Positions 6,399 through 60,922 of a stretch of DNA of 64,000 nucleotides are shown here, piece after piece. Position 1 is the stretch's first letter. Every line of letters begins with the position of its first letter. The position numbers and the translations under genes were made by a program. This DNA is from a virus. The DNA lies in IMG/VR virus record IMGVR_UViG_3300024978_000002; one strand, given 5' to 3'. The notes beneath the pieces were generated by a model. It was not told where the DNA came from. It saw only the letters and a list, made by a program, of their open reading frames with translations, and did no database searches.

Positions 6399-6884
6399 AT
6401 GAAGACGGCAGTGACTACGACGCCCACCCCTTCGGTGGTCGTGATCGCAGGGCGTTCGACCGAAGCGCGTTTGGCTGCGCTGACTGTCCGCCCGAAAATG
6501 TTCTTTGCGAGTGATGAAATCATTTCGCAAGAAACTCAGCAGATGGAAGAAGCGAGTGTTGCTCAGGCGCAATCGGCTCACGACGAGCGCTTACGGCGAT
6601 TGGCTAACCCCATGACGCAAACCGGTCAAGCCAAACTCTTTGTTTTGGAACCCGAGCGGTTGGCCGTCAGTGACCCGGACGCACATAGCGCCTTGAGAGC
6701 ACTGGTGAATTCCCAGTTAAAGGACTCCGAACGTACGGCCGTGGCACTACTGCCGCCAGAGAACGGTTACAGTGCGGCCGGTCAAGCCACCGCCGACTTG
6801 ATCGAATCAACGGTGCTGCCGGGGAATCGTTACCAGACGATTGACAGTGTGGAAGATTTAGAGAGCTGGGTGGATAACCACTGA
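6399..6884 (+). CDS. Hypothetical protein (possible head protein; contains ISQE motif)
   Basis: 161-aa ORF with GGAG RBS, followed by a hairpin terminator. Confidence 0.65.
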   Translation: MKTAVTTTPTPSVVVIAGRSTEARLAALTVRPKMFFASDEIISQETQQMEEASVAQAQSAHDERLRRLANPMTQTGQAKLFVLEPERLAVSDPDAHSALRALVNSQLKDSERTAVALLPPENGYSAAGQATADLIESTVLPGNRYQTIDSVEDLESWVDNH

Positions 6885-6904
6885 AACGCGCATAAAACCC
6901 ACAT

Positions 6905-6972: not shown

Positions 6973-6996
6973 TTTCACCGCTATATCATTGTCATG
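6973..6996 (+). promoter_or_regulatory. Putative phage (early-type) promoter upstream of the omegaRNA
   Basis: TTTCACCGCTATATCATTGTCATG matches intergenic motifs at 59774 and 60368 (TTTCARRACTATATCGTTCTAGTG) and 38730. Confidence 0.5.
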
Positions 6997-7270
6997 TCAG
7001 CGGCTGCGATCAAGTTCAGGTACGCTGACTTTCCCGAACCTAGTTTCGTCAGGGAACCAGACTCAATCTGACGTAAAGTCAGACTACGTTACTCAAGAAA
7101 TAGGTATCTTCAGATACCTCCTCAGTCTGAAGCTCTACGGTATTACGTTAAACAGCTTTATGGGTTTAAGGCAGTGCGTAATGCGTCAAACCTTGGGATA
7201 ACTTTGTCGAGAGGACTGTGGGGTAACGCCCCACTGTCACTGAAGGCCCGTAAGGGCGTTGTAAAGGTAT
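6994..7270 (+). ncRNA. omegaRNA (IscB guide + scaffold); guide about 6994-7013, scaffold from 7014
   Basis: Typical IscB omegaRNA blocks: ACCAGACT, CTACGTT, ATAGGTA, CTCCTCAGTCT..CTCTACG, GTTAAACAG, GGCAGTG, AAACC..ATAACTTTGTCGAGAGG. First stem GTTC(7014)/GAAC(7054); long-range pairing CAGACT(7058)/AGTCTG(7124); 3' hairpins before the iscB RBS. Confidence 0.85.
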
Positions 7271-8561
7271 TTCACCATGACGGTATTTGTCTTGGACAAA
7301 CGTAAACGGCCGCTGATGCCGTGTAGTAACAAACGAGCTCGTTTACTGTTAGAGCGTGGGCGCGCTGTTGTCCACCGCTTTAAGCCCTTTACCATTCGGC
7401 TGAAAGACCGTATTCAGGGCGACTGCGTATTTCAACCTATCATGCTGGGTATAGACCCGGGTTCAAAGACCACGGGTCTAGCCCTCACACGCCGTGACGG
7501 TGAGGACGCCGTACTGGTGTTTGGTGTTGAGTTACAGCACCGGGGGTTGGCTATACGGGCCAAGCTTTTAAGGCGCAGTGCTTACCGCCGTAATCGGCGC
7601 TCCCGTAAGACCCGCTATCGCCCTGCCCGTTTTAAAAACCGTACGAAACCAAAAGGGTGGTTACCCCCCTCTCTTCGACATCGAGTAGAATCAACGTTGA
7701 CATGGGCGGGTCGCTTTCGACGCTTAGCACCAGTGACCGCTTTGGCTTATGAAGCTGTGGAATTCGACACACAGCGTTTACGTAATCCTGAGGTCTCTGG
7801 CATACAGTACCAGCAAGGCACGTTGCAAGGGTATACCGTCCGTGCCTACGTACTTCAGAAGTGGGATTACGCCTGTGCGTACTGTGGATCCAAAGACCGT
7901 CTGACACTTGATCACGTTATCCCTCGCTCTCGACACGGGAGTGACGCGGTGACAAACCTGGTCTGTGCTTGTTACGGCTGTAATCAACGTAAGGGCAACC
8001 GTCGGGTGCAAGAGTTTTTAGCAAAGAAACCCACGGTACTAAAACGTGTCCTCGAACAACTGAAAAAGCCCTTACGAGACGCTAGTGCGGTGATTAGTAC
8101 GCGCCCCGCGTTACATAAGGCGTTAGGGGAGGTAGGATTGCCACTCACTGTTGGTACTGGGGCGGAAACCAGCTACATTAGACACCGATTGAAACTCCCT
8201 AAGAGTCATGTCGTGGACGCTGCTTGTGTGGCGCTAACAGGAACCCTTAAAGGAGAATGGTTTAAACCATTACTTGTCGTTTGTGCTGGTACGGGACGTT
8301 ACCAACGTGTCAGAACAGATCGCTTCGGATTTCCTAAAGCGCACAGAGTTCGCGTCAAACGGCCATTCGGATTTCAAACAGGTGACCTGGTGCGTTATGG
8401 GAAAGTTATTGGTAGGACAGCTGTAAGAATGACGGGTTTTTTCAGTTTCCAACACAAACATCAAAACTTTAACGTAAAATGGTCGAAACTAACACTGGTG
8501 CAGAGAAGTGACGGCTATCTCTATTGTTGAACTCTGTTCCCAGACGGTAGCGGTCCTGAAC
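7014..8561 (+). mobile_element. Non-autonomous IS200/IS605-like IscB (OMEGA) element
   Basis: Contains omegaRNA + iscB, no tnpA. Ends are imperfect inverted repeats: GTTCAGGTACGCT (7014-7026) vs AGCGGTCCTGAAC (8549-8561), and CGTCAGGGAAC (7047-7057) vs GTTCCCAGACG (8536-8546). Confidence 0.75.
7277..8530 (+). CDS. iscB: RNA-guided endonuclease IscB
   Basis: N-terminal PLMP domain, RuvC-I LGIDPGSKTTG, Arg-rich bridge helix (RRNRRSRKTRYRPARF), RuvC-II YEAVEFD, HNH CAYC..DHVIPRSRHG..NLVCACYGCNQRKGN, RuvC-III SHVVDA. Catalytic residues appear intact. Confidence 0.95.
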   Translation: MTVFVLDKRKRPLMPCSNKRARLLLERGRAVVHRFKPFTIRLKDRIQGDCVFQPIMLGIDPGSKTTGLALTRRDGEDAVLVFGVELQHRGLAIRAKLLRRSAYRRNRRSRKTRYRPARFKNRTKPKGWLPPSLRHRVESTLTWAGRFRRLAPVTALAYEAVEFDTQRLRNPEVSGIQYQQGTLQGYTVRAYVLQKWDYACAYCGSKDRLTLDHVIPRSRHGSDAVTNLVCACYGCNQRKGNRRVQEFLAKKPTVLKRVLEQLKKPLRDASAVISTRPALHKALGEVGLPLTVGTGAETSYIRHRLKLPKSHVVDAACVALTGTLKGEWFKPLLVVCAGTGRYQRVRTDRFGFPKAHRVRVKRPFGFQTGDLVRYGKVIGRTAVRMTGFFSFQHKHQNFNVKWSKLTLVQRSDGYLYC

Positions 8562-8590
8562 TACTTCGTTTGAAAAAACGTTGACGCGTT

Positions 8591-8670
8591 TATGGTGCAG
8601 GTAGGGATAGGGTCGTCCGACCGAGTCACACCCCTCTCGGAAGGCGTCACCCACCCTACCTGCACCGCCA
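8591..8670. other. Long imperfect hairpin (leader or small RNA)
   Basis: 13-bp perfect outer stem GGTGCAGGTAGGG (8594-8606) / CCCTACCTGCACC (8654-8666) with inner CCGAG/CTCGG pairing; begins at a TATG. Confidence 0.5.
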
Positions 8671-8717: not shown

Positions 8718-9272
8718 ATGGGTATCGTTCAGCAAGTTTTTCTGTTCTTCCGCAGCCTCGGTGTGATGTTCGGTATGAACGACAACGATCGCGAAGTCAC
8801 CCCGGACCCCAAGCACGTTGACGGTGAATATCGCCGACTGGTCGTGGCGCCTGTGATTTTTCAATCCCTGGTCGGACAGACTGTGAAATGCGATCCGGAT
8901 TTCGAACGCATGCTCCCCACACGTGAAGGGGAATACATCGTACGGTTTTGTGTGGACGGTGACGTCTTGAAGGGAAATGTTTACTCCCTCGAACGCTACA
9001 AGGGAGGTTTGTTTACCCCGGCTTACAACCCGACATGGCAAAGCGACCACATCGTGGACTTTCACCTGGACGTTTCTTACGATCCGGACAGCGGGTTGTC
9101 ACAGAAAATGACCCCCATCACCAACGTACTGTCAGTGGCTTCTGATCTTTCCTACAACCGCTTTTCCCCGTGCCGGAGTTATCAACTTACCCTTACCCCA
9201 GACGAACTGGTTTCGTTTGGTCGTTGCACCATCCGCGCTCACAAAGGAGTACACTGTCATGTTATTGCGTAA
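8718..9272 (+). CDS. Hypothetical protein
   Basis: ATG at 8718 with AAGGA RBS, inside the 8592-9272 ORF; operon with the next two genes. Confidence 0.65.
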   Translation: MGIVQQVFLFFRSLGVMFGMNDNDREVTPDPKHVDGEYRRLVVAPVIFQSLVGQTVKCDPDFERMLPTREGEYIVRFCVDGDVLKGNVYSLERYKGGLFTPAYNPTWQSDHIVDFHLDVSYDPDSGLSQKMTPITNVLSVASDLSYNRFSPCRSYQLTLTPDELVSFGRCTIRAHKGVHCHVIA

Positions 9273-9879
9273 CGTGTTGATCTGGGCCACCATTGCAGTG
9301 GCGCTGGTGGGTTGTAGCAAAACCCAATACCAACCGGACGGCGATACGTCCAACAAAGCCTTGGTGGAAATGGCTCGTCAGGCTGATGCCGAGAACGCTC
9401 CGCCGGTAACGGCCGATCCGTTCACTCCGCCGTTCGCCGATGTGGCTCTGGAGCAATACCTGGTGGGTGTCTCCACTCGGATTCCTGCCGATGGTCAGGA
9501 CTACGTCAGGAGCTACAACGACTTCATGAAGCAAGAAGCCGCCAATCCGTCTCAGGCGACGGGGTTGTCACAGTCCACGGGGTACCCGCTGTACCCAGTA
9601 CGGTGCGAGAGCTACAACAAGGAGATGGCCTGCGTGGATAGCAGTGACAACACCGTACCTCAGGCCGAACTCGTGGACAGCACGGTACTAATCAAGAACC
9701 GGGACGCCATCGCCAACCCCAACATCGAGTGCGGGGACATCATCTGCGTGGACGTCACCAACCGCCAAGTCGTGGGACATGCCTCGTTCGCAATCCTGGC
9801 GTGGCGGGCGGATCACTGTCAGTCCGTCCCCAATGCTCCGTACCAGTGTCCGTCGATCAAACCCTTCCAGGGTCAGTAA
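9259..9879 (+). CDS. Predicted lipoprotein
   Basis: Signal peptide MLLRNVLIWATIAVALVG|C with lipobox LVGC; Cys-rich C-terminal part; AGGAG RBS. Confidence 0.75.
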   Translation: MLLRNVLIWATIAVALVGCSKTQYQPDGDTSNKALVEMARQADAENAPPVTADPFTPPFADVALEQYLVGVSTRIPADGQDYVRSYNDFMKQEAANPSQATGLSQSTGYPLYPVRCESYNKEMACVDSSDNTVPQAELVDSTVLIKNRDAIANPNIECGDIICVDVTNRQVVGHASFAILAWRADHCQSVPNAPYQCPSIKPFQGQ

Positions 9880-11885: not shown

Positions 11886-12869
11886 ATGAATCAAGAAACA
11901 CCACCCAAAGGCACCGTTCGTATCTTTGGAGCTGGCGGCGGGGGTATTAACGTCGCGGGAAGCTGGAATGGTTTGTCTGGGAAGACGCTTCCCGGTGGCG
12001 CGTCGTGCCAGGTAGTGTATGTTGATACGTCGCGTTCGAATCTCCCCGATGATATCAACCAGGACGATCTATATATCCTGGACAAGGTCGATGGTTCGGG
12101 TAAGGTACGTGCCGAAAACCATGTCGAGATCTCCAGGAATATTCGCCAGATCGTTCAACAGTTCGAACCAGGTGACCTCAACATCGTTTGCTTCACGGCT
12201 TCAGGTGGTAGCGGTTCGGTACTGGCGCCTTTGATCTTGAGCGAGATGATCGAACGCAAGGTCCCGGTGGTTGGTGTGGTGATCGGTTCGGAAGAATCCA
12301 ATATCACCTGCCGCAACACGATCAATACGTTGAAGAGTCTGGAGTCGATTGCCAAGCGTAAGGGTGTGCCGGTGGTGATTGCGTACTACCACAACGCGCC
12401 GGACGTCAAGCGTTCCTCGGTCGATATCGAGTGTCGGTATGCCCTGGCCACGCTCTCGATCCTGGCTTCGCGTCAGAACCGCGAACTCGATACGATGGAT
12501 CTGGCGAATTTCCTGAACTTCTCCAAGGTCACGTCGGTGGAACCGCAGCTCGCGTTGCTGCACATCTACAATACCCCTGAGGACGTCAACCAGGCCACCA
12601 ACCCTGTGGCTATTGCCTCCCTGCTGAAGGATCCCGACCAGGCCTCCCATAGCCTGACTCCGGAATACGCCACGGTGGGTTACCCCCGCGAGATCACTGA
12701 GAATTTCGACCAGCTACATTACGTGATCACATTGGATGGTGTCCAGACGATTTACGAGAAGCTCACCCACCGGATGGATGAACTGGCTAAAGCAGCGGCG
12801 TCGCGCGTTCAGCATGACAGTATCGTCTCTAAGGACGACACGATCACTGAAGACGGGTTGATCCTGTAA
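11886..12869 (+). CDS. phuZ: PhuZ phage tubulin
   Basis: GAGGGGIN N-terminal loop, DTSRSN, GSGKVR, tubulin signature TASGGSGS, acidic C-terminal tail ending DGLIL; 327 aa. Confidence 0.93.
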   Translation: MNQETPPKGTVRIFGAGGGGINVAGSWNGLSGKTLPGGASCQVVYVDTSRSNLPDDINQDDLYILDKVDGSGKVRAENHVEISRNIRQIVQQFEPGDLNIVCFTASGGSGSVLAPLILSEMIERKVPVVGVVIGSEESNITCRNTINTLKSLESIAKRKGVPVVIAYYHNAPDVKRSSVDIECRYALATLSILASRQNRELDTMDLANFLNFSKVTSVEPQLALLHIYNTPEDVNQATNPVAIASLLKDPDQASHSLTPEYATVGYPREITENFDQLHYVITLDGVQTIYEKLTHRMDELAKAAASRVQHDSIVSKDDTITEDGLIL

Positions 12870-22399: not shown

Positions 22400-24313
22400 A
22401 TGCCCGTCAACACTGGCAACAACGGCAACAACGAGTCCGGTAAGCAGACTCCGGCTTCCGGCAGCGTGTTCGGCGACAGCCTGAACCGCAACACGGGTGC
22501 CCAGGGCACCCAGTCCCAGGCCAGCGCACCGCGTGGTCGTGGTATCGGTCGTCTGAGCAGCCTGCGCACCGGTATGGGTCGTAAGCGTCCAGCGGCCGAT
22601 CTCGAAGCGATGAAGACCGGTTTCATCGAGGAGTTCAAGAGCTTCACGAATGCCTCCGTGATCGCCGAGGCGCAGAACACCCGCCTGATCATGATCGACC
22701 GCAACCAGATCGGCAAGAAGGTCGACCTGCTGGTGGCCGTGCTGCCGATCAGCAAGGACGGCCAAACCCATGCGGCCATCCACACCGTTCTGGTCGAAGA
22801 CGCCAACGACGACTACGAGCCCACCACGTTCCAGGTCGGCGGCAAGCCGTCGCGTTACACCACCGTCGTCGGTGACGTGTACACCAAGGAACTCTGGGGC
22901 CAGATCGTCGATATCGTCTCGCAGCAGGCTGGTCTGAAGATCGTCCCGTACGATGCCGGCCACCAGACTCTGCCGGCCGAGACCGACGTCAAGGACAAGG
23001 ATGTGATCCACAAGGTCGCGTTCTTCGTGTCCGAGGCGCTGACCCGTACGGCCATGTCCTCGATCCTGCAGACCACGGCCGATATCGTGTCGCTGGCGGA
23101 TCTGGGTGACAACACCCAGGCCAGTGCCAAGATCGACTTCCGTTCCGTGGACGACAAGACCGCTGCTGGTCTGCCGATCCGTACGGATTTCGCGGTCAAG
23201 CTGCACTACAGCGAGCAGACCCCGCAGGGCGTGTCCCAGACCGAGAAGGCATTCGACCTGGACAGCCAGATCCCGCTGGGCGGTGCTGAAGGCTTCATCG
23301 ACCTGACCTACGTCGCTCCGCCGCAGGCGGGTTTCGGTCAGCAGCAGGCCACGCAGCACTACTTCGCTCGTGCGATCCTGACCCGTCTGGACACCGACCA
23401 GGACATCATCACGCCGGAGCTGCAGATGCTGAGTCTGCTGGGTTCGACCCTGATCGCTCGCAACCTCAACTGGGGTCGCGTGTGGAGCCCGCAGTTCCGC
23501 GGGATCAACAAGGTCGATCTGCACGATATCGGTGCGATCGGTTACGAGCTGCCGGGTCCGGACGGTGTGCCGGCAGGTGTGCCGGTGGAAACCAACACCG
23601 CCGCGTTCGATGACGCTCAGCTGGCTCGCCTGCTGATGACCGCGGTGCACGACAAGCCGATCATCTCGATTGACGTGGAGGAGTCCGGTGAACTCAGCTG
23701 GCTGAACCGTGTCCTGCTGGATGCGGCCGAGGGTTCGGCGGAAGCCAACAACTCGATCGTGAACGCGCTCGACAACCTGACCAACGGCAATTTCAGCAAT
23801 AACTGGAAGGGCGGTCAGATCGTGGTGGATGACAACAACCGTATCCACCTGGGCTACTACATGGACGAGGCTGGTGTGCGTCGTGACGTGCGTGCCCTGG
23901 ACTACCTGATGGTCCTGAACAGCTACGCGACGATCGACCCGCAGATGATCATCCGTTGGCAGGCCACGTTCGACAACCTCGACGTGGACGCGCAGGTGCG
24001 TCTGGCGGATCGCGAGGACATGATCCGCAAGATCCTCGGCCCGACGGTGCACTTCACCGGCTACGCTCGTCGCGTGAACTTCGCGCCGGACGTGCTGGAT
24101 TACGCGCTGGAGGCCGCGGGTGAAGCGGGTCTGCGTATCCGTCCGGAGAACACCCTGATCGGTTTCGGTCAGACCTCCGTGCGTGGTCGTCAGGACCTGT
24201 CCAGCCTCACCTTCGGTGGTCAGGCCGGTCGCGGTGTGTTCACCTACGGCCAGGGTGCCGGCGGCGGTCGCAACTTCGCCCGTCCGTACACCGGTCGTGG
24301 CGGCTGGCGTTAA
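22400..24313 (+). CDS. chmA: Chimallin (phage nuclear shell protein)
   Basis: 637 aa, immediately upstream of the nvRNAP beta' N-terminal gene; disordered N-terminus and Gly/Arg-rich C-terminal segments; strongly optimised codon usage typical of a very abundant protein. Confidence 0.85.
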   Translation: MPVNTGNNGNNESGKQTPASGSVFGDSLNRNTGAQGTQSQASAPRGRGIGRLSSLRTGMGRKRPAADLEAMKTGFIEEFKSFTNASVIAEAQNTRLIMIDRNQIGKKVDLLVAVLPISKDGQTHAAIHTVLVEDANDDYEPTTFQVGGKPSRYTTVVGDVYTKELWGQIVDIVSQQAGLKIVPYDAGHQTLPAETDVKDKDVIHKVAFFVSEALTRTAMSSILQTTADIVSLADLGDNTQASAKIDFRSVDDKTAAGLPIRTDFAVKLHYSEQTPQGVSQTEKAFDLDSQIPLGGAEGFIDLTYVAPPQAGFGQQQATQHYFARAILTRLDTDQDIITPELQMLSLLGSTLIARNLNWGRVWSPQFRGINKVDLHDIGAIGYELPGPDGVPAGVPVETNTAAFDDAQLARLLMTAVHDKPIISIDVEESGELSWLNRVLLDAAEGSAEANNSIVNALDNLTNGNFSNNWKGGQIVVDDNNRIHLGYYMDEAGVRRDVRALDYLMVLNSYATIDPQMIIRWQATFDNLDVDAQVRLADREDMIRKILGPTVHFTGYARRVNFAPDVLDYALEAAGEAGLRIRPENTLIGFGQTSVRGRQDLSSLTFGGQAGRGVFTYGQGAGGGRNFARPYTGRGGWR

Positions 24314-24370: not shown

Positions 24371-24475
24371 CTGTCTTTTCGTAAAAAGGAACCGTATCGC
24401 CTAATGGCATGATGGTGTTGCGCCTAGGACTTCACTGTCGTTCACCAATCGTCTCCTAGTCCATTGAGGGACGCT

Positions 24476-25807
24476 ATGACCAAACCAAAGTTAGATGCAC
24501 TCGACCCTGCCCTCCGGGTCAAACCTCGTCCAGGGATTGACAGCTGCCGTCGTTTTGACGGCGTAGGCATCCGTCTGGTTGACCTAGATCAGAAATTCGA
24601 TACTACCACCACCCCACCGGTACTACTCAACAGTTTCGACGTTACATCGGCTGAAGACAAGAAGCAACTCGATAAGTTGATCTACACGTTCTACGAGGGC
24701 GACAGCCTCAATGTTGTCCCGCAGTGTGACTGTCGGCGTATCCGCGGCGCCACCAAGATCGGGATGCACTGCTCCCACTGCAATACCACCGTCCACCCCG
24801 TATCCGAACAACCACTCGAATCCTTACTCTGGATCGCCCCACCGGAAGGTGTGGAAACGTTCATCAATCCCCAAGTCTGGACGATGCTCTCCAAGGCTTT
24901 GACTCATGGGGGTATCAATGGCTTGGCATGGCTTTGTGATCCCGTGATGCCGGTGGGTAGTGAGCCTCACCGAGAGATCCGGAAGCTGATGGATCTAGGT
25001 ATTGAGCGCGGTATCAACTACTTCTATCAAAACTTCGACACCATCATTGATCGTTTGTTCGACGCCGGGGTGATTTCTGGAACCACCAAGCGCCAGCGTG
25101 ATGACCTGTACCTGTTTATCAAGTTGAACAGGAACAAGATTTTCTGCAAACACCTGCCGATCCCCTCACGTCTAGGATTCGTAGCGGAGAAAACCATCAC
25201 CGGAACGTTTGTGGACATGACGATGAAGATGGCGTTGGAAGCCATCCGAACCATCAGCTCCACCGTGTACTCACTGACACCTCTGGATATCAAACGTCGA
25301 CAGTCACGTGCGGTGAAAGCCAACGACTACATGGCCCAGTATCATCAGGAGTTCATGACGGCGACGTTGGCGTCAAAAAAGGGGTTGTTCCGTAAGGACA
25401 TCTACGGCAGTCCGTTGTTCTTCACGTTCCGTTCGGTGATTAGTTCGTTGTCCGAGCGTCATGCGTACGACGAGCTGTATCTGCCCTGGGGTGTGGCAGT
25501 GTCGACGTATAGCCTACATCTGACCAGTAAAATGATGCGGATGACGAACCCAGATACAGGGCTACCATTCACACCCAACGAGATCCTGAAACATCTGCGA
25601 GAACACACATTGGCGTACAGTCCTTTACTGGACAAACTGTTCGATGAACTGATTGCGGAAGCGCCTGGACGTGGGCCCTGTATCCTCTTGAATCGTAACC
25701 CTTCGCTCGATCGTGGATCCATTCAGCAGTTCTACGTGACGAAGATCATCAAGGATCCAAAGATCAATGCAGTAGCGATGTCAGTCTTGTGCCTGAAGGC
25801 TCCAAAT
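24476..25807 (+). CDS. Non-virion RNAP beta'-like N-terminal subunit, exon 1 (phiKZ gp55-like)
   Basis: Zn-binding CDC..CSHC, LLNRNPSLDRGS; ends at KAPN, just before the displaced ADFDGD motif. Confidence 0.9.
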
Positions 25808-27215
25808 CAATCACACACGTTGAAAGTCCCCTAAGGGCGCACCGCCCGAAGGAGGGTTCCATGTCAAAATCTGAAACACTCGACGAGAATGTGGTGTTCT
25901 CGCCGACCGAATCTGAAACTCATCCGGGATTTTTCGAAATACCTGACTTCCCTCACTATCTCGCTTCGCCGCATGGAGAAATCTGGTACAAGCGCAAAAA
26001 CAGTCTGATTCTACCGAGGGAGCATAAAACTTCGAAAGGTAGTTACTTAGCCGTTTCTGCTTGGAATGGTGAGAAGTTTCTCCACACTCTTGTACACCTC
26101 ATGGTGGCGGCAGCTTTCTACGGTCTTCCTCAAGGAGACCGAAATCAGGTTAACCACAAAGACGGTGACAAACACAACAACCACTTTAAGAACCTGGAGT
26201 GGGTGACTCGGACCGAGAATCTGATTCACGCCTATAAAACCGGGCTACGGACTGATGTCAGAGGCGTGTTGTGCGTCGACCACCAAACCGGCGAAGCGCA
26301 GGAGTTCTATTCGATGCGCGAGGTCGGTCGCCACTTCGGTTGGACTAAAGGGGAGATCTGGAGGACGATTCGAGATCACGCCGAAAAGAAATACCTTGAG
26401 CGCTACACGTTCCTACTTCCCCAGTCGGAAAGTTACAGCCTTAGGCAAAGACACTCCAAGGAGCAAGGCGGTGTCATTCGGGATATAGTCGCTAAGAACT
26501 ACCGAAACAACCAAGTTGCGATCTTTCCAGACCAAGGAACGGCAGAGTTGATGACCCACGTCAAACGAGGCACCATTAACTTCAACCTGAACCTCGCAGC
26601 CGAACCCTATCGCTTGATTAAAGGGTGGGTTTTCAAATACTTGGACGATCCGGCCGATTGGCCGGACTACTCTGAGGAAATGGTGGAGCTGTCCTTCCTC
26701 CGCAAAGCGGCTGGACAGCCCATCGAAGTTACGGATACCACGACTAACACCACCTGCAAATACACTTCGATACATGCATTTGCAGAGTCGCTGGGTGAAT
26801 ATCCAAACACCATAAGGCGCGCCTTGAAGAAAACTCCAGGGTGTTTCCGACATTTTGACATTAAGAACGTGATGTGATTAGTTTCCTCCGGTAGAGATAC
26901 CGGTTGATAGATCTCCTTAATTGCTGGAATCCCCTGAGAGCCGACATACCACTGCGAGGCGAAAGCCAAAGCGATAGGTTTGATAAGTTGTCGGATTGGG
27001 CAATCAGCAGCGAAGCTCCCTCGGTAAGTGCCGCTGAAAAGCGGGCCAGGGAGAACGTTCAACGACTAGCGAATGAGCTGCGTAGGGTCAAGTGATCCGA
27101 AATGGGAGAGGTCCTAACTCGAAAGAGAAGGATTAAGATATAGTCTCGTCTCTGGGGAAACTCAGAGCAGTCCTTAGGGACGGGTAGGGTGTAACGATCC
27201 CTACTGAAGATAACG
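25808..27215 (+). mobile_element. Group I intron encoding an HNH homing endonuclease
   Basis: 5' exon ends in U, intron ends in G. P element TTAATTGCTGGAATCC (26917), Q AATCAGCAG (27002), R GTTCAACGACTA (27057), S AAGATATAGTCT (27135); P7 GACTA/TAGTC. Splicing restores N-ADFDGD. Confidence 0.9.
25861..26877 (+). CDS. Intron-encoded HNH homing endonuclease (NUMOD4/HNH with C-terminal DNA-binding modules)
   Basis: VHLMVAAAF...QVNHKDGDKHNNHFKNLEWVTRTENLIHA; GGAGGG RBS before ATG 25861. Confidence 0.9.
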   Translation: MSKSETLDENVVFSPTESETHPGFFEIPDFPHYLASPHGEIWYKRKNSLILPREHKTSKGSYLAVSAWNGEKFLHTLVHLMVAAAFYGLPQGDRNQVNHKDGDKHNNHFKNLEWVTRTENLIHAYKTGLRTDVRGVLCVDHQTGEAQEFYSMREVGRHFGWTKGEIWRTIRDHAEKKYLERYTFLLPQSESYSLRQRHSKEQGGVIRDIVAKNYRNNQVAIFPDQGTAELMTHVKRGTINFNLNLAAEPYRLIKGWVFKYLDDPADWPDYSEEMVELSFLRKAAGQPIEVTDTTTNTTCKYTSIHAFAESLGEYPNTIRRALKKTPGCFRHFDIKNVM

Positions 27216-27404
27216 GCTGATTTTGATGGGGATGCCTTAAACGGCACTCTCCTTCTGTCAAACAAACAAGCAAGGGAGTTCAGTCGTCTTGCCCCCCATA
27301 TGGGCGCACTGGACCTGGACAAACCACGGATGATGTCAAAGAACCAAGCTATACCCCCACCGGTGGCCAGCACCAACGCCAATTGGCTACATCGGGGTCA
27401 GTAA
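27216..27404 (+). CDS. Non-virion RNAP beta'-like subunit, exon 2 (phiKZ gp56.1-like)
   Basis: Translates ADFDGDALNGTLLL...WLHRGQ*; carries the catalytic DFDGD. Absent from the ORF track because it has no start codon. Confidence 0.9.
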   Translation, partial: ADFDGDALNGTLLLSNKQAREFSRLAPHMGALDLDKPRMMSKNQAIPPPVASTNANWLHRGQ

Positions 27405-59773: not shown

Positions 59774-59800
59774 TTTCAGAACTATATCGTTCTAGTGAGA
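59774..59800 (+). promoter_or_regulatory. Putative phage promoter (duplicate 1)
   Basis: ACTATATCGTTCTAGTGAGA is identical to the copy at 60374-60393. Confidence 0.6.
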
Positions 59801-60367: not shown

Positions 60368-60393
60368 TTCAAGACTATATCGTTCTAGTGAGA
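60368..60393 (+). promoter_or_regulatory. Putative phage promoter (duplicate 2)
   Basis: TTTCAAGACTATATCGTTCTAGTGAGA. Confidence 0.6.
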
Positions 60394-60446
60394 TAAAACC
60401 AGTTTAAAAACTGGTACACCTAACACTCACCAACGGAGTACGGTTT

Positions 60447-60857
60447 ATGAACAGCGATCTTGAAATGTTCCGGACCACCATCAAACTCGCCGAACAGATG
60501 TTGGCGCTGACCACGGAAATGAATCAGAACTTTAACAAACGTGCGGTTGGGTTGGAGAATGGTTACAAGGCTTTGAAACTTGACATCGCTCGCATGAAGG
60601 TTCTCTTCGAGGTGGAAGCAGAATTGGATAAGATGGAGCAAACCAATTTCGATATGGAGAAACAGATTACCGAAACGATTGAACAACTCGATCGCAACGC
60701 GATACTCTTCCTCCAAACCTATCCCGATTCCAAGGAACGTGAAGAAGTCCTGAAGGCCGCTTACAACGGTCACCGGACTCTGGAGCGTTCCAAAGAAGAG
60801 CTCAGCCGCCTGCGGCGCTCCAGCGAGCGTCTGCTGACCGGAATGCTGGCAGTGTAA
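60447..60857 (+). CDS. Helical protein, tandem paralog B
   Basis: 136 aa, paralog of 59856-60266. Confidence 0.75.
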   Translation: MNSDLEMFRTTIKLAEQMLALTTEMNQNFNKRAVGLENGYKALKLDIARMKVLFEVEAELDKMEQTNFDMEKQITETIEQLDRNAILFLQTYPDSKEREEVLKAAYNGHRTLERSKEELSRLRRSSERLLTGMLAV

Positions 60858-60860
60858 CAA

Positions 60861-60922
60861 CATACACCCCCTACTGACCACTTGGGTCAGTAGGGGGTGT
60901 ATGGAGTCCTTCTTTTTTTTTT
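60861..60922. terminator. Bidirectional terminator with CATACACCCC arms
   Basis: Perfect 19-bp stem CATACACCCCCTACTGACC / GGTCAGTAGGGGGTGTATG plus a long T-tract. Confidence 0.85.

Follow-up and report, generated by a model that had tools for sequence, protein, structure and literature searches.

The stretch of DNA analysed here (hereafter the window; 64,000 nucleotides of the virus record IMGVR_UViG_3300024978_000002) contains a 1546-nt insert, at 7003-8548, that splits its carrier's own target. The cassette appears to sit closely behind a conserved phage promoter and, in sense orientation, within an operon's 5′ leader. It comprises, in order, a 10-nt left end, a 17-nt guide, an omegaRNA scaffold, an iscB gene and an 18-nt tail. 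The features of the locus, and the two genes that best identify the phage, are as follows.

6973-6990, + strand: promoter-like motif with the core TTCANNNCTATA at 6974-6985, about 6 nt upstream of G6996
6990-6995, - strand: candidate target-adjacent motif (TAM), ATGACA, directly 3′ of the protospacer in element-free alleles
6996-7002, + strand: left remnant of the split target, GTCAGCG, from alignment of filled and empty alleles
7003-7012, + strand: 10-nt left end of the insert, GCTGCGATCA, from the same kind of alignment
7013-7029, + strand: putative 17-nt omegaRNA guide, AGTTCAGGTACGCTGAC, adjoining the conserved scaffold
7030-7276, + strand: omegaRNA scaffold (HEARO), with an Rfam RF02033 match at 7043-7222
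7277-8530, + strand: iscB, 417 aa, all catalytic motifs intact
7664-7669, + strand: run of six C within iscB; a C7 haplotype yields frameshifted pieces of 158 and 277 aa
8531-8548, + strand: 18-nt insert tail after the stop codon, without a clear IS200/IS605 subterminal hairpin
8549-8562, + strand: right remnant of the target, AGCG (second copy of the duplication), GT, then CCTGAACT
8591-8666, + strand: TATGG and a long hairpin, both within the downstream operon's 5′ leader; phage sequence
11886-12869: PhuZ-type tubulin (Tubulin/TubZ_C match)
22400-24313: chimallin (PF25677, E 1.6e-53; phrog_4795, 'nuclear shell protein')

The chimallin, the PhuZ-type tubulin and the multisubunit phage RNA polymerases, including matches to the RNAP beta subunit, place the window among the nucleus-forming phages of the Chimalliviridae, as the first-pass annotation had proposed. 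The DNA of these phages is enclosed in a protein shell, and host Cas9 is kept out by this chimallin shell. The natural host of the phage is probably Xanthomonas-like, a bacterium of wastewater or soil. The region had no match by megablast against 50,697 phage records, and scans of IMG/VR with both flanking proteins likewise returned no match. The nearest named relatives, phages RTH11 and LucasX, share 30-40% protein identity around the site; they are too diverged to provide a direct empty allele and were used as outgroups for the target motif.

The iscB gene, its omegaRNA and the upstream promoter-like motif

The window's protein has the hallmarks of its class, an N-terminal PLMP domain and a split RuvC (I, II and III) with an inserted HNH, and a cognate omegaRNA (HEARO) lies directly upstream of the ORF. 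Pfam matches cover RRXRR (residues 3-181, E 1e-69) and HNH (residues 200-242), and matches in the PDB, OgeuIscB among them, range from E 1e-31 to 1e-41. In a 20-sequence alignment, the residues invariant in the 19 homologues (PLMP at 12-15, D60, E159, H213, N227/N236, H311, D314 and four cysteines) are all kept, so that the domain matches and the alignment together confirm the earlier description of a complete IscB with PLMP, RuvC and HNH intact. Between two diverged natural copies, iscB has accumulated 4 nonsynonymous and 10 synonymous substitutions, a ratio that shows purifying selection on the gene.

The omegaRNA scaffold matches RF02033 with 86 bits (gathering score 83), compared with 97-100 in relatives. 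Sequence conservation with the two closest IscB loci begins at 7031, and the first scaffold hairpin is formed by 7031-7035 and 7052-7056; the scaffold therefore starts at 7030/7031. The first-pass annotation had rightly recognised a scaffold and had set its start at 7014, too far upstream. From the scaffold start to the ATG there are 247 nt, and IscB loci average 242. Among five sequences, double changes preserve pairing at 21 of the 68 predicted pairs, and these compensatory changes show that the structure has been kept.

The promoter core occurs in five exact copies in the window, all on the + strand and four of them intergenic, against 0.2 expected, and an identical 12-mer stands at the syntenic site in phage LucasX. 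The full 18-mer at 6973-6990 has no second copy within three mismatches, and the earlier claim of a recurring upstream motif thus holds for the core and fails for the longer sequence. The spacing from the motif to this conserved G appears to follow the rule described for vRNAP promoters (PMC5312081), and G6996 is a possible transcription start. Since the cassette lies downstream of this promoter-like motif in sense orientation, phage transcription should yield both omegaRNA and IscB. RNA-labelled runs contributed three short, low-depth contigs, which were flagged as probably DNA. Further downstream, the hairpin at 8591-8666 (DNA fold z = -4.5) is present in empty alleles and kept in LucasX and RTH11; it is not part of the insert, and the next gene starts at 8718.

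Element-free alleles and an inverted guide

The first-pass annotation had proposed a search for empty alleles, and natural ones were found in six contigs from public runs (L011-L016) and as a joint in a soil run. They read ...TGTCAT|GTCAGCG-TA-CCTGAACT... and differ from the empty allele that had been reconstructed from the window, ...GCGATCAA|TACTTCG.... Flank identity to the window is 99% in L011, 76-90% in L012 and 92-97% in L013-L016; SNPs at 6890 and 8801 flank the site. Both alleles co-occur in the soil run, X7, where the joint 7002>8555 has a depth of 22 and the element contig one of 9.5. Moreover, contigs L014-L018 break exactly 30 nt outside the junctions, the pattern expected if both alleles share one sample. 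The uninterrupted motif is also found in the outgroups LucasX and RTH11, so the empty state is ancestral. A palindromic ancestral site with an inverted copy was considered and rejected, because the motif occurs once and uninterrupted in the outgroups, and because AGCGTA is no TAM.

With the scaffold starting at 7030/7031, the guide falls at 7013-7029. It had previously been placed at 6994-7013 and taken to be upstream phage flank; scaffold start and empty alleles together put it within the insert and in inverted orientation relative to the site. These 17 nt are the exact reverse complement of the 17 nt across the insertion point in element-free phages, GTCAGCGTACCTGAACT. The match is single copy in the window, and we estimate its probability by chance at about 1e-8. 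The heteroduplex of OgeuIscB is likewise 17 bp. The candidate TAM, ATGACA, fits the OgeuIscB requirement (NWRRNA/NNRR) and resembles both ATGAA, the complement of the GstIscB TAM TTCAT, and the ATGAGA of a Ralstonia phage element. Elsewhere in IMG/VR, the 17-mer has three matches in unrelated context, consistent with chance, and the inverted arrangement is absent from the closest IscB loci, L009 and L010. Scans of a metagenome contig collection for the empty junction, and for the 10-nt left end together with the guide, gave no match, a result without weight because these contigs are evidently not part of that collection.

It is conceivable that the inverted 17-mer is no guide but a by-product of insertion or repair, for instance of fold-back synthesis that copied the target in reverse. 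The junction does contain interleaved inverted repeats, GTCAGCG/CGCTGAC and AGTTCAGG/CCTGAACT, which a companion note took for terminal inverted repeats. However, the copy stops precisely where the scaffold begins, its length is exactly that of an IscB heteroduplex, and in the empty allele a canonical TAM follows on the matching strand. There is no reason for a repair artefact to satisfy all three, and this explanation is very improbable.

The dinucleotide at the centre of the target is GT in the window, TA in other carriers and in the empty alleles predicted to be susceptible, and AT in some other empty alleles, a variant predicted to resist cleavage. Avoidance of GTAC as the cause of this variation was rejected (289 observed against 249 expected).

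As in homing endonuclease genes, the site to be recognised belongs to the uninterrupted allele and is lost on insertion, and presence or absence is polymorphic among close relatives that meet in nature. The earlier proposal that the element is programmed against element-free siblings thus receives strong support from natural sequence data: empty alleles co-occur with it, the 17-nt match is perfect, the TAM fits and the carrier's target is split. Taken together, the 1546-nt cassette probably behaves as an RNA-guided homing endonuclease gene. In element-free siblings, the guide would pair with the plus strand of GTCAGCGTACCTGAACT, and ATGACA on the opposite strand would serve as TAM. Cuts would be expected at 3 nt from this TAM by HNH and, judging from relatives, at about 7 nt by RuvC. 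Where the sibling is nearly identical, repair would use the carrier genome as template and thereby copy the cassette; where the relative is diverged, the cut would simply damage a competitor. The carrier itself should be immune, because its own site is split and its guide DNA is followed by scaffold, with no TAM.

Entry and maintenance of the cassette

Alignment of filled and empty alleles reveals a 4-bp duplication, AGCG, flanking the insert (first copy at 6999-7002), contrary to the companion note, which had reported none. AGCG corresponds to protospacer positions 4-7, where HNH and RuvC cuts are expected. These expected positions were bracketed from IsrB, which nicks the non-target strand at 8-11 nt, and Cas9d, in which HNH cuts between positions 3 and 4 and RuvC between 6 and 7. 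In AwaIscB, cleavage of the non-target strand falls at 8 or 12 nt. No empty allele has the 10 nt of 7003-7012, which are the same in three diverged element copies and may be donor flank or junction filler. In the diverged carriers L017 and L018 the insertion is clean, the AGCG duplication is present and the guide is unaltered.

A canonical IS200/IS605 (ISC) insertion is clean, adjoins the TAM, leaves no duplication and takes its guide from the flank; such elements also have a subterminal hairpin at the far end and a TnpA (Y1) transposase in cis or trans. The first-pass anatomy, an element of this kind inserted by TnpA with upstream phage sequence as guide, would suit membership in the IscB family and the orientation shared with the upstream gene, which IscB elements usually have. 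However, comparison with real empty alleles shows that the 27 nt between phage flank and scaffold are insert, the 4-bp duplication is present, and the right junction, AGCGTA, is not a TAM. A genuinely canonical phage IscB insertion, the one that distinguishes the Ralstonia phage Adzire from Bakoly, looks different, being clean, with the flank as guide and the TAM at the far end. There is no recognisable left-end hairpin, no convincing hairpin in 8531-8548 and no TnpA seen at the locus, no Y1_Tnp Pfam annotation among the genes of the 21-kb locus L003, and no conserved element end in an alignment downstream of iscB in the two closest loci. Arrival by canonical TnpA activity is scarcely credible, since the guide is part of the cassette, the insertion falls inside the target of that guide, and a 4-bp duplication flanks it.

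The duplication would instead match a staggered IscB cut that was filled in, and the likeliest origin would be a donor fragment captured into an IscB-made break. The donor may have been a relative whose own, canonical insertion adjoins this conserved motif, with iscB on the opposite strand next to TGTCAT|GTCAGCG...; another expected mark of a donor would be the motif with TGATCGCAGC after it.

Whether the cassette is still active bears on its role, and there are signs of decay. About a third of the contigs read carry the frameshifted iscB haplotype in the homopolymer run, and the C7 allele is a haplotype rather than a random error, because it is linked to three downstream SNPs. The window lineage also has substitutions at 7107 and 7116, omegaRNA positions invariant in four relatives, both of which favour an alternative local hairpin. 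Frameshift and substitutions alike count against active homing, and with the low HEARO score they could mark a relic: a cassette that came in a single time, by way of an IscB-made break or other illegitimate recombination, and persists as a passive, decaying passenger without a present-day role in homing or competition. In keeping with such a relic, the bioreactor and wastewater assemblies show the element at fixation, with no remaining target, and in run X7 susceptible alleles persist at higher depth. There, the TA alleles of predicted susceptibility outnumber the element, so any drive is not sweeping in that population. Against it stand the excess of synonymous substitutions in iscB, the intact catalytic residues, and the complete conservation (100%) of both junctions and the guide across three copies with 1-2% divergence elsewhere. 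Moreover, decay after fixation is the expected late stage in the life cycle of a homing element. On balance, a mere relic is unlikely.

It is tempting to go further and to regard the cassette as a self-contained, transposase-free IscB-omegaRNA homing element whose fixed guide is directed at a promoter-proximal motif conserved in its phage family. It would have reached its present site by cut and capture, taken up into the staggered break of its own making with a 4-bp duplication left behind, and would now spread or kill through RNA-guided cleavage inside, or at the entry to, the phage nucleus. This fuller proposal is tentative and on present evidence somewhat doubtful. For this, an RNA-protein nuclease would need some way through the chimallin shell.

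Likeness to known systems and biological meaning

The closest mechanistic parallel is the 'transposon restorative homing' of OMEGA systems, described for IS200/IS605 IscB (Meers et al., bioRxiv 10.1101/2023.03.14.532601; review PMC13565253). The two share a protein family and an omegaRNA, a guide directly 5′ of the scaffold, a TAM 3′ of the protospacer and a nuclease programmed against the element's own empty site. In contrast to IS200/IS605 IscB, the cassette has an internal, inverted guide and a 4-bp duplication, and it lies within the protospacer rather than between protospacer and TAM. Its host is a phage, and its rivals would be sibling phages instead of the sister chromosome after excision. 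Nearer in habitat is the Ralstonia phage element of Adzire, Elie, Simangalove, Heva, Alix and Claudette, annotated there as 'HNH endonuclease', which likewise combines a phage IscB (46% identity) with a HEARO omegaRNA and is lacking from the siblings Bakoly and Jenny. Unlike the cassette, it is a canonical clean insertion with a left-flank guide in direct orientation, no duplication and the TAM ATGAGA in place of ATGACA; it is about 99% identical in two unrelated phage groups, and none of these phages is nucleus-forming.

Among chimalliviruses, gp210 of PhiPA3 is an intron-encoded HNH endonuclease that acts against the cognate site of co-infecting relatives and can work in homing as well as in interference competition (Birkholz et al. 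2024, PMC11620839). It relies on protein-DNA recognition and resides in a group I intron, whereas the cassette, free-standing within a 5′ leader, would rely on an RNA guide of 17 nt. The T-even endonucleases SegB, SegF and MobE (PMC2330249, PMC2790892) resemble the cassette in being inserted between conserved phage genes, in having their target in the sibling that lacks the endonuclease and in being polymorphic for presence or absence among close relatives. They are protein-only, and donor immunity usually comes from nearby polymorphisms. The cassette's immunity, unlike theirs, would come from physical disruption of the RNA-specified target.

RNA-guided homing by OMEGA systems has been demonstrated for transposon retention in bacteria, and nucleus-forming phages are known to fight one another with protein-only homing endonucleases. 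The present locus unites these two themes: judged by its sequence, the cassette looks able, as an RNA-programmed homing endonuclease, to cut and to convert or kill competitors. It also provides a natural experimental system, with near-isogenic carrier and empty phages, a defined 17-nt target and TAM, an allele of predicted resistance (central AT) and a naturally occurring frameshift mutant. The apparent non-canonical movement of an IscB that carries its guide along and inserts into its own cut bears on how flank-guided transposon nucleases could give rise to guide-carrying systems such as CRISPR-Cas9. Finally, if the enzyme does act on enclosed phage DNA, it would be a probe for the traffic of protein and RNA across the phage nuclear shell.

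The iscB gene, its omegaRNA and the carrier phage

The complete IscB, with PLMP, RuvC and HNH motifs intact, that had been read from the DNA is upheld by the Pfam domains of the ORF and by a 20-sequence alignment in which it retains each invariant catalytic or structural residue (PLMP 12-15, D60, E159, C200/C203/C232/C235, H213, N227/N236, H311, and D314). Among solved structures the protein matches IscBs such as OgeuIscB, with E values from 1e-31 to 1e-41, and ~6,000 homologues share 50-56% identity with it, several of them carrying the name "RNA-guided endonuclease IscB". By its gene content, the window is part of the genome of a nucleus-forming phage, as the first-pass annotation had proposed, since it encodes chimallin, a PhuZ-type tubulin, and phage RNA polymerase (RNAP) subunits. 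Of the named phages, RTH11 and LucasX, both Xanthomonas phages, are nearest; a conserved neighbouring protein is 66-72% identical. A tblastn search of 50,697 phage records gave no full-length match to IscB from a known chimallivirus, and a literature search found no paper connecting IscB with jumbo or nucleus-forming phages.

Features of the IscB locus and of the carrier phage
7043-7222: omegaRNA (Rfam HEARO, 86 bits vs gathering score 83)
7277-8530 (+): iscB ORF (417 aa); Pfam domains RRXRR (E 1e-69) and HNH
11886-12869: PhuZ-type tubulin
22400-24313: chimallin (PF25677; phrog "nuclear shell protein")

Similarity to the two closest IscB loci (L009 and L010, with IscB amino acid identities of 69% and 56%, respectively, and HEARO matched in both) sets in abruptly at 7031 (TTCCCGAAC...). 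The consensus fold, in which compensatory double changes preserve 21 of 68 scaffold pairs, places the first scaffold hairpin at 7031-7035/7052-7056. Since the OgeuIscB scaffold opens with a "guide adaptor hairpin" and its heteroduplex is formed by the ~17 nt just 5′ of that hairpin (PMC9640706), the guide is placed at 7013-7029, and not 6994-7013 as first annotated. The scaffold-to-ATG distance of 247 nt is in line with the 242-nt average of Meers et al.

Element-free alleles, the guide's target and a candidate promoter

The phage is abundant in public assemblies, and an identical IscB occurs on 13 contigs, at the same location in all. When contigs were placed on the region, a soil run (X7) was found to hold a joint of 7002 to 8555 with "TA" between (depth 22) alongside a 1606-nt element contig spanning 6973-8578 (depth 9.5). 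Look-up of downstream-protein variants yielded L011, L012, and L013, where the flanking genes are just 284 nt apart, and L014-16, which begin 30 nt ahead of the junction; flank identity to the window is 99.5% and 98.5% in L011, 76-90% in L012, and 92-97% in L013-16. Every empty allele reads ...CATTGTCAT GTCAGCG NN CCTGAACT ACTTCG..., so the empty allele reconstructed earlier was wrong. The central NN is TA in L011, L012, and X7 and AT in L013-16. LucasX (ATGACAGCGATCCTGTACT) and RTH11 (ACGACAGAGTACCTGTACT) likewise keep the uninterrupted target motif at the syntenic intergenic position, so the empty state is ancestral.

L011, otherwise 99% identical, has 12 SNPs in the 84 nt matching window 9468-9551, suggesting a short recombination patch ~900 nt right of the insertion site. 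The gene upstream of the cassette (6399-6884) encodes 161 aa here vs 311-315 aa in RTH11/LucasX (L001:6711-7646, L002:6619-7566), and a 157-188-aa gene between it and the next gene in those phages is missing from the window phage, with or without the cassette.

The guide (AGTTCAGGTACGCTGAC), which occurs once in the window, is the exact reverse complement of 17 nt (GTCAGCGTACCTGAACT) bridging the insertion point in TA-type empty alleles. In the empty allele, the plus strand would be the one bound by the guide RNA. The minus strand, as the non-target strand, runs on 3′ with ATGACA, which is consistent with the OgeuIscB TAM, NWRRNA/NNRR, shares 4 of 5 bases with ATGAA (the GstIscB TAM TTCAT, complemented), and is close to ATGAGA, the TAM derived here for a phage IscB of 46% identity (the Ralstonia phage Adzire element). 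Because OgeuIscB requires matches at positions 1-14 (PMC9640706), the carrier, in which just 7 TAM-proximal target nt are left beside the putative TAM and the guide-encoding DNA runs into TTTCCC instead of a TAM, should be immune to its own nuclease. The same rule predicts resistance for AT-type alleles, which are mismatched at positions 8 and 9; as AT is also present in the distant LucasX, it may reflect standing variation and not an evolved escape.

A motif upstream of the cassette had been said to recur before several phage genes. The full 18-mer (6973-6990) is in fact unique in the window, and what does recur is its 12-nt core, TTCANNNCTATA, with five exact copies, all on the + strand, vs 0.2 expected; four of the five are intergenic, and the syntenic position of LucasX holds an identical core. 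The three best copies have a G 5-6 nt past the AT-rich core, a spacing that agrees with the virion-RNAP promoter rule of phiKZ-like phages (PMC5312081) and makes the core a candidate promoter of this type. On this reading, the transcript would begin with the 17-nt target, and transcription of the cassette would start at G6996, placing a 17-nt leader ahead of the guide. Downstream of the target motif, TATGG and a long imperfect hairpin (8591-8666), kept in the syntenic intergenic regions of LucasX and RTH11, may form a late promoter and structured leader. The promoter-like copy at 60368-60379, nearly identical over ~25 nt to that at 59775, is directed into a minus-strand gene (60420-60881) at its 3′ end and may drive an antisense or small RNA.

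Insertion junctions and a canonical phage element

Two diverged natural copies of the cassette from other runs, L017 and L018, end precisely 30 nt beyond each junction, the break expected of a k=31 assembly graph with two co-occurring alleles. Their left junction is that of the window and their right junction reads ...GACGGT AGCG TA CCTGAACT; the GT at 8553-8554 in the window is, by this comparison, a later change. Set against the empty allele, these junctions define a clean 1546-nt insertion (7003-8548) with a flanking 4-bp AGCG duplication, corresponding to protospacer positions 4-7. In Cas9d, which is intermediate between IscB and Cas9, the HNH cut falls between positions 3 and 4 on the target strand and the RuvC cut between 6 and 7 on the non-target strand (PMC12339737). 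A staggered IscB cut at 3 and ~7 nt, followed by fill-in and joining to a DNA fragment, would produce exactly this duplication. Since the insert opens with 10 nt (7003-7012) and then the guide, the guide arrived with the element and not from the local flank. A related donor phage with a canonical insertion beside the same motif would account for the guide matching the site, and such a donor is conceivable because the motif is conserved in LucasX and RTH11.

The IscB element of Adzire is a clean insertion (L022 2188-3915) vs its 99% relative Bakoly, with a precise empty site in the siblings Bakoly (L023, between 2201 and 2202) and Jenny. Its HEARO (120 bits) begins at the element boundary, the left flank serves as its guide in direct orientation, no duplication is present, and the TAM ATGAGA lies directly beyond the far end. 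The window's cassette, in contrast, holds its guide inside the insert, as the reverse complement of the site, and is flanked by the AGCG duplication. The Adzire element also occurs, at ~99% identity, in unrelated Ralstonia phages of 57 kb (Heva, Alix, Claudette, and Dimitile). Its annotation is simply HNH endonuclease or hypothetical protein, and a literature search found no description of phage IscB elements with element-free siblings.

Constraint, possible decay and proposed RNA-guided homing

At the sequence level, the iscB genes of L017 and L018 (4 nonsynonymous vs 10 synonymous substitutions), the segment 6973-7047, without any change in either, and the compensatory scaffold changes are evidence for function. 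The evidence against function, at least in the window's lineage, comprises three observations. A C6-to-C7 frameshift haplotype (homopolymer 7664-7669; L006-L008), linked to SNPs at 8653, 8801, and 8825, divides iscB into 158-aa and 277-aa ORFs on 7 of ~20 contigs, from assemblies that may not all be independent. The window has T at 7107 and A at 7116, vs C and G in all four relatives (L017, L018, L009, and L010) and the HEARO consensus, and these changes perfect a local hairpin (7103-7118) that rivals the consensus pairing of 7108-7115 with 7125-7132. Finally, the element appears to be fixed in bioreactor and wastewater assemblies. Since the pattern fits the classic homing-gene cycle of invasion, fixation, and decay, the active phase of the copy in the window may already be over. 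Separately, the L018 scaffold (L018:76-224; window 7048-7196) differs from that of the window at 15 positions in 150 nt (~10%), while its iscB ORF differs at just 7 of 1254, which looks like a recombination mosaic or accelerated RNA change.

The phage may also carry a second, protein-guided homing system, in a region (24464-27382) whose layout resembles that of the intron and HNH gene within the PhiPA3 RNAP gene.

Features of the candidate second homing system
24464-25834: phage RNAP beta-subunit gene piece, with the ORF and intron downstream
25789-26877: HNH_3 + NUMOD1 endonuclease ORF
26844-27167: group I intron (Rfam RF00028, 74.8 bits), directly after the ORF

What was first seen in the DNA is confirmed in part. 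The first-pass idea of IscB-omegaRNA homing holds in spirit, in that a natural TA-type site matches the guide, and fails in anatomy, both guide and empty allele having been misplaced. Read from its sequence, the locus is probably a variant of RNA-guided homing, one that is new and for which the natural evidence is unusually direct. As the Adzire and Bakoly pair demonstrates, sequenced phages already include carriers of IscB elements that have element-free siblings.
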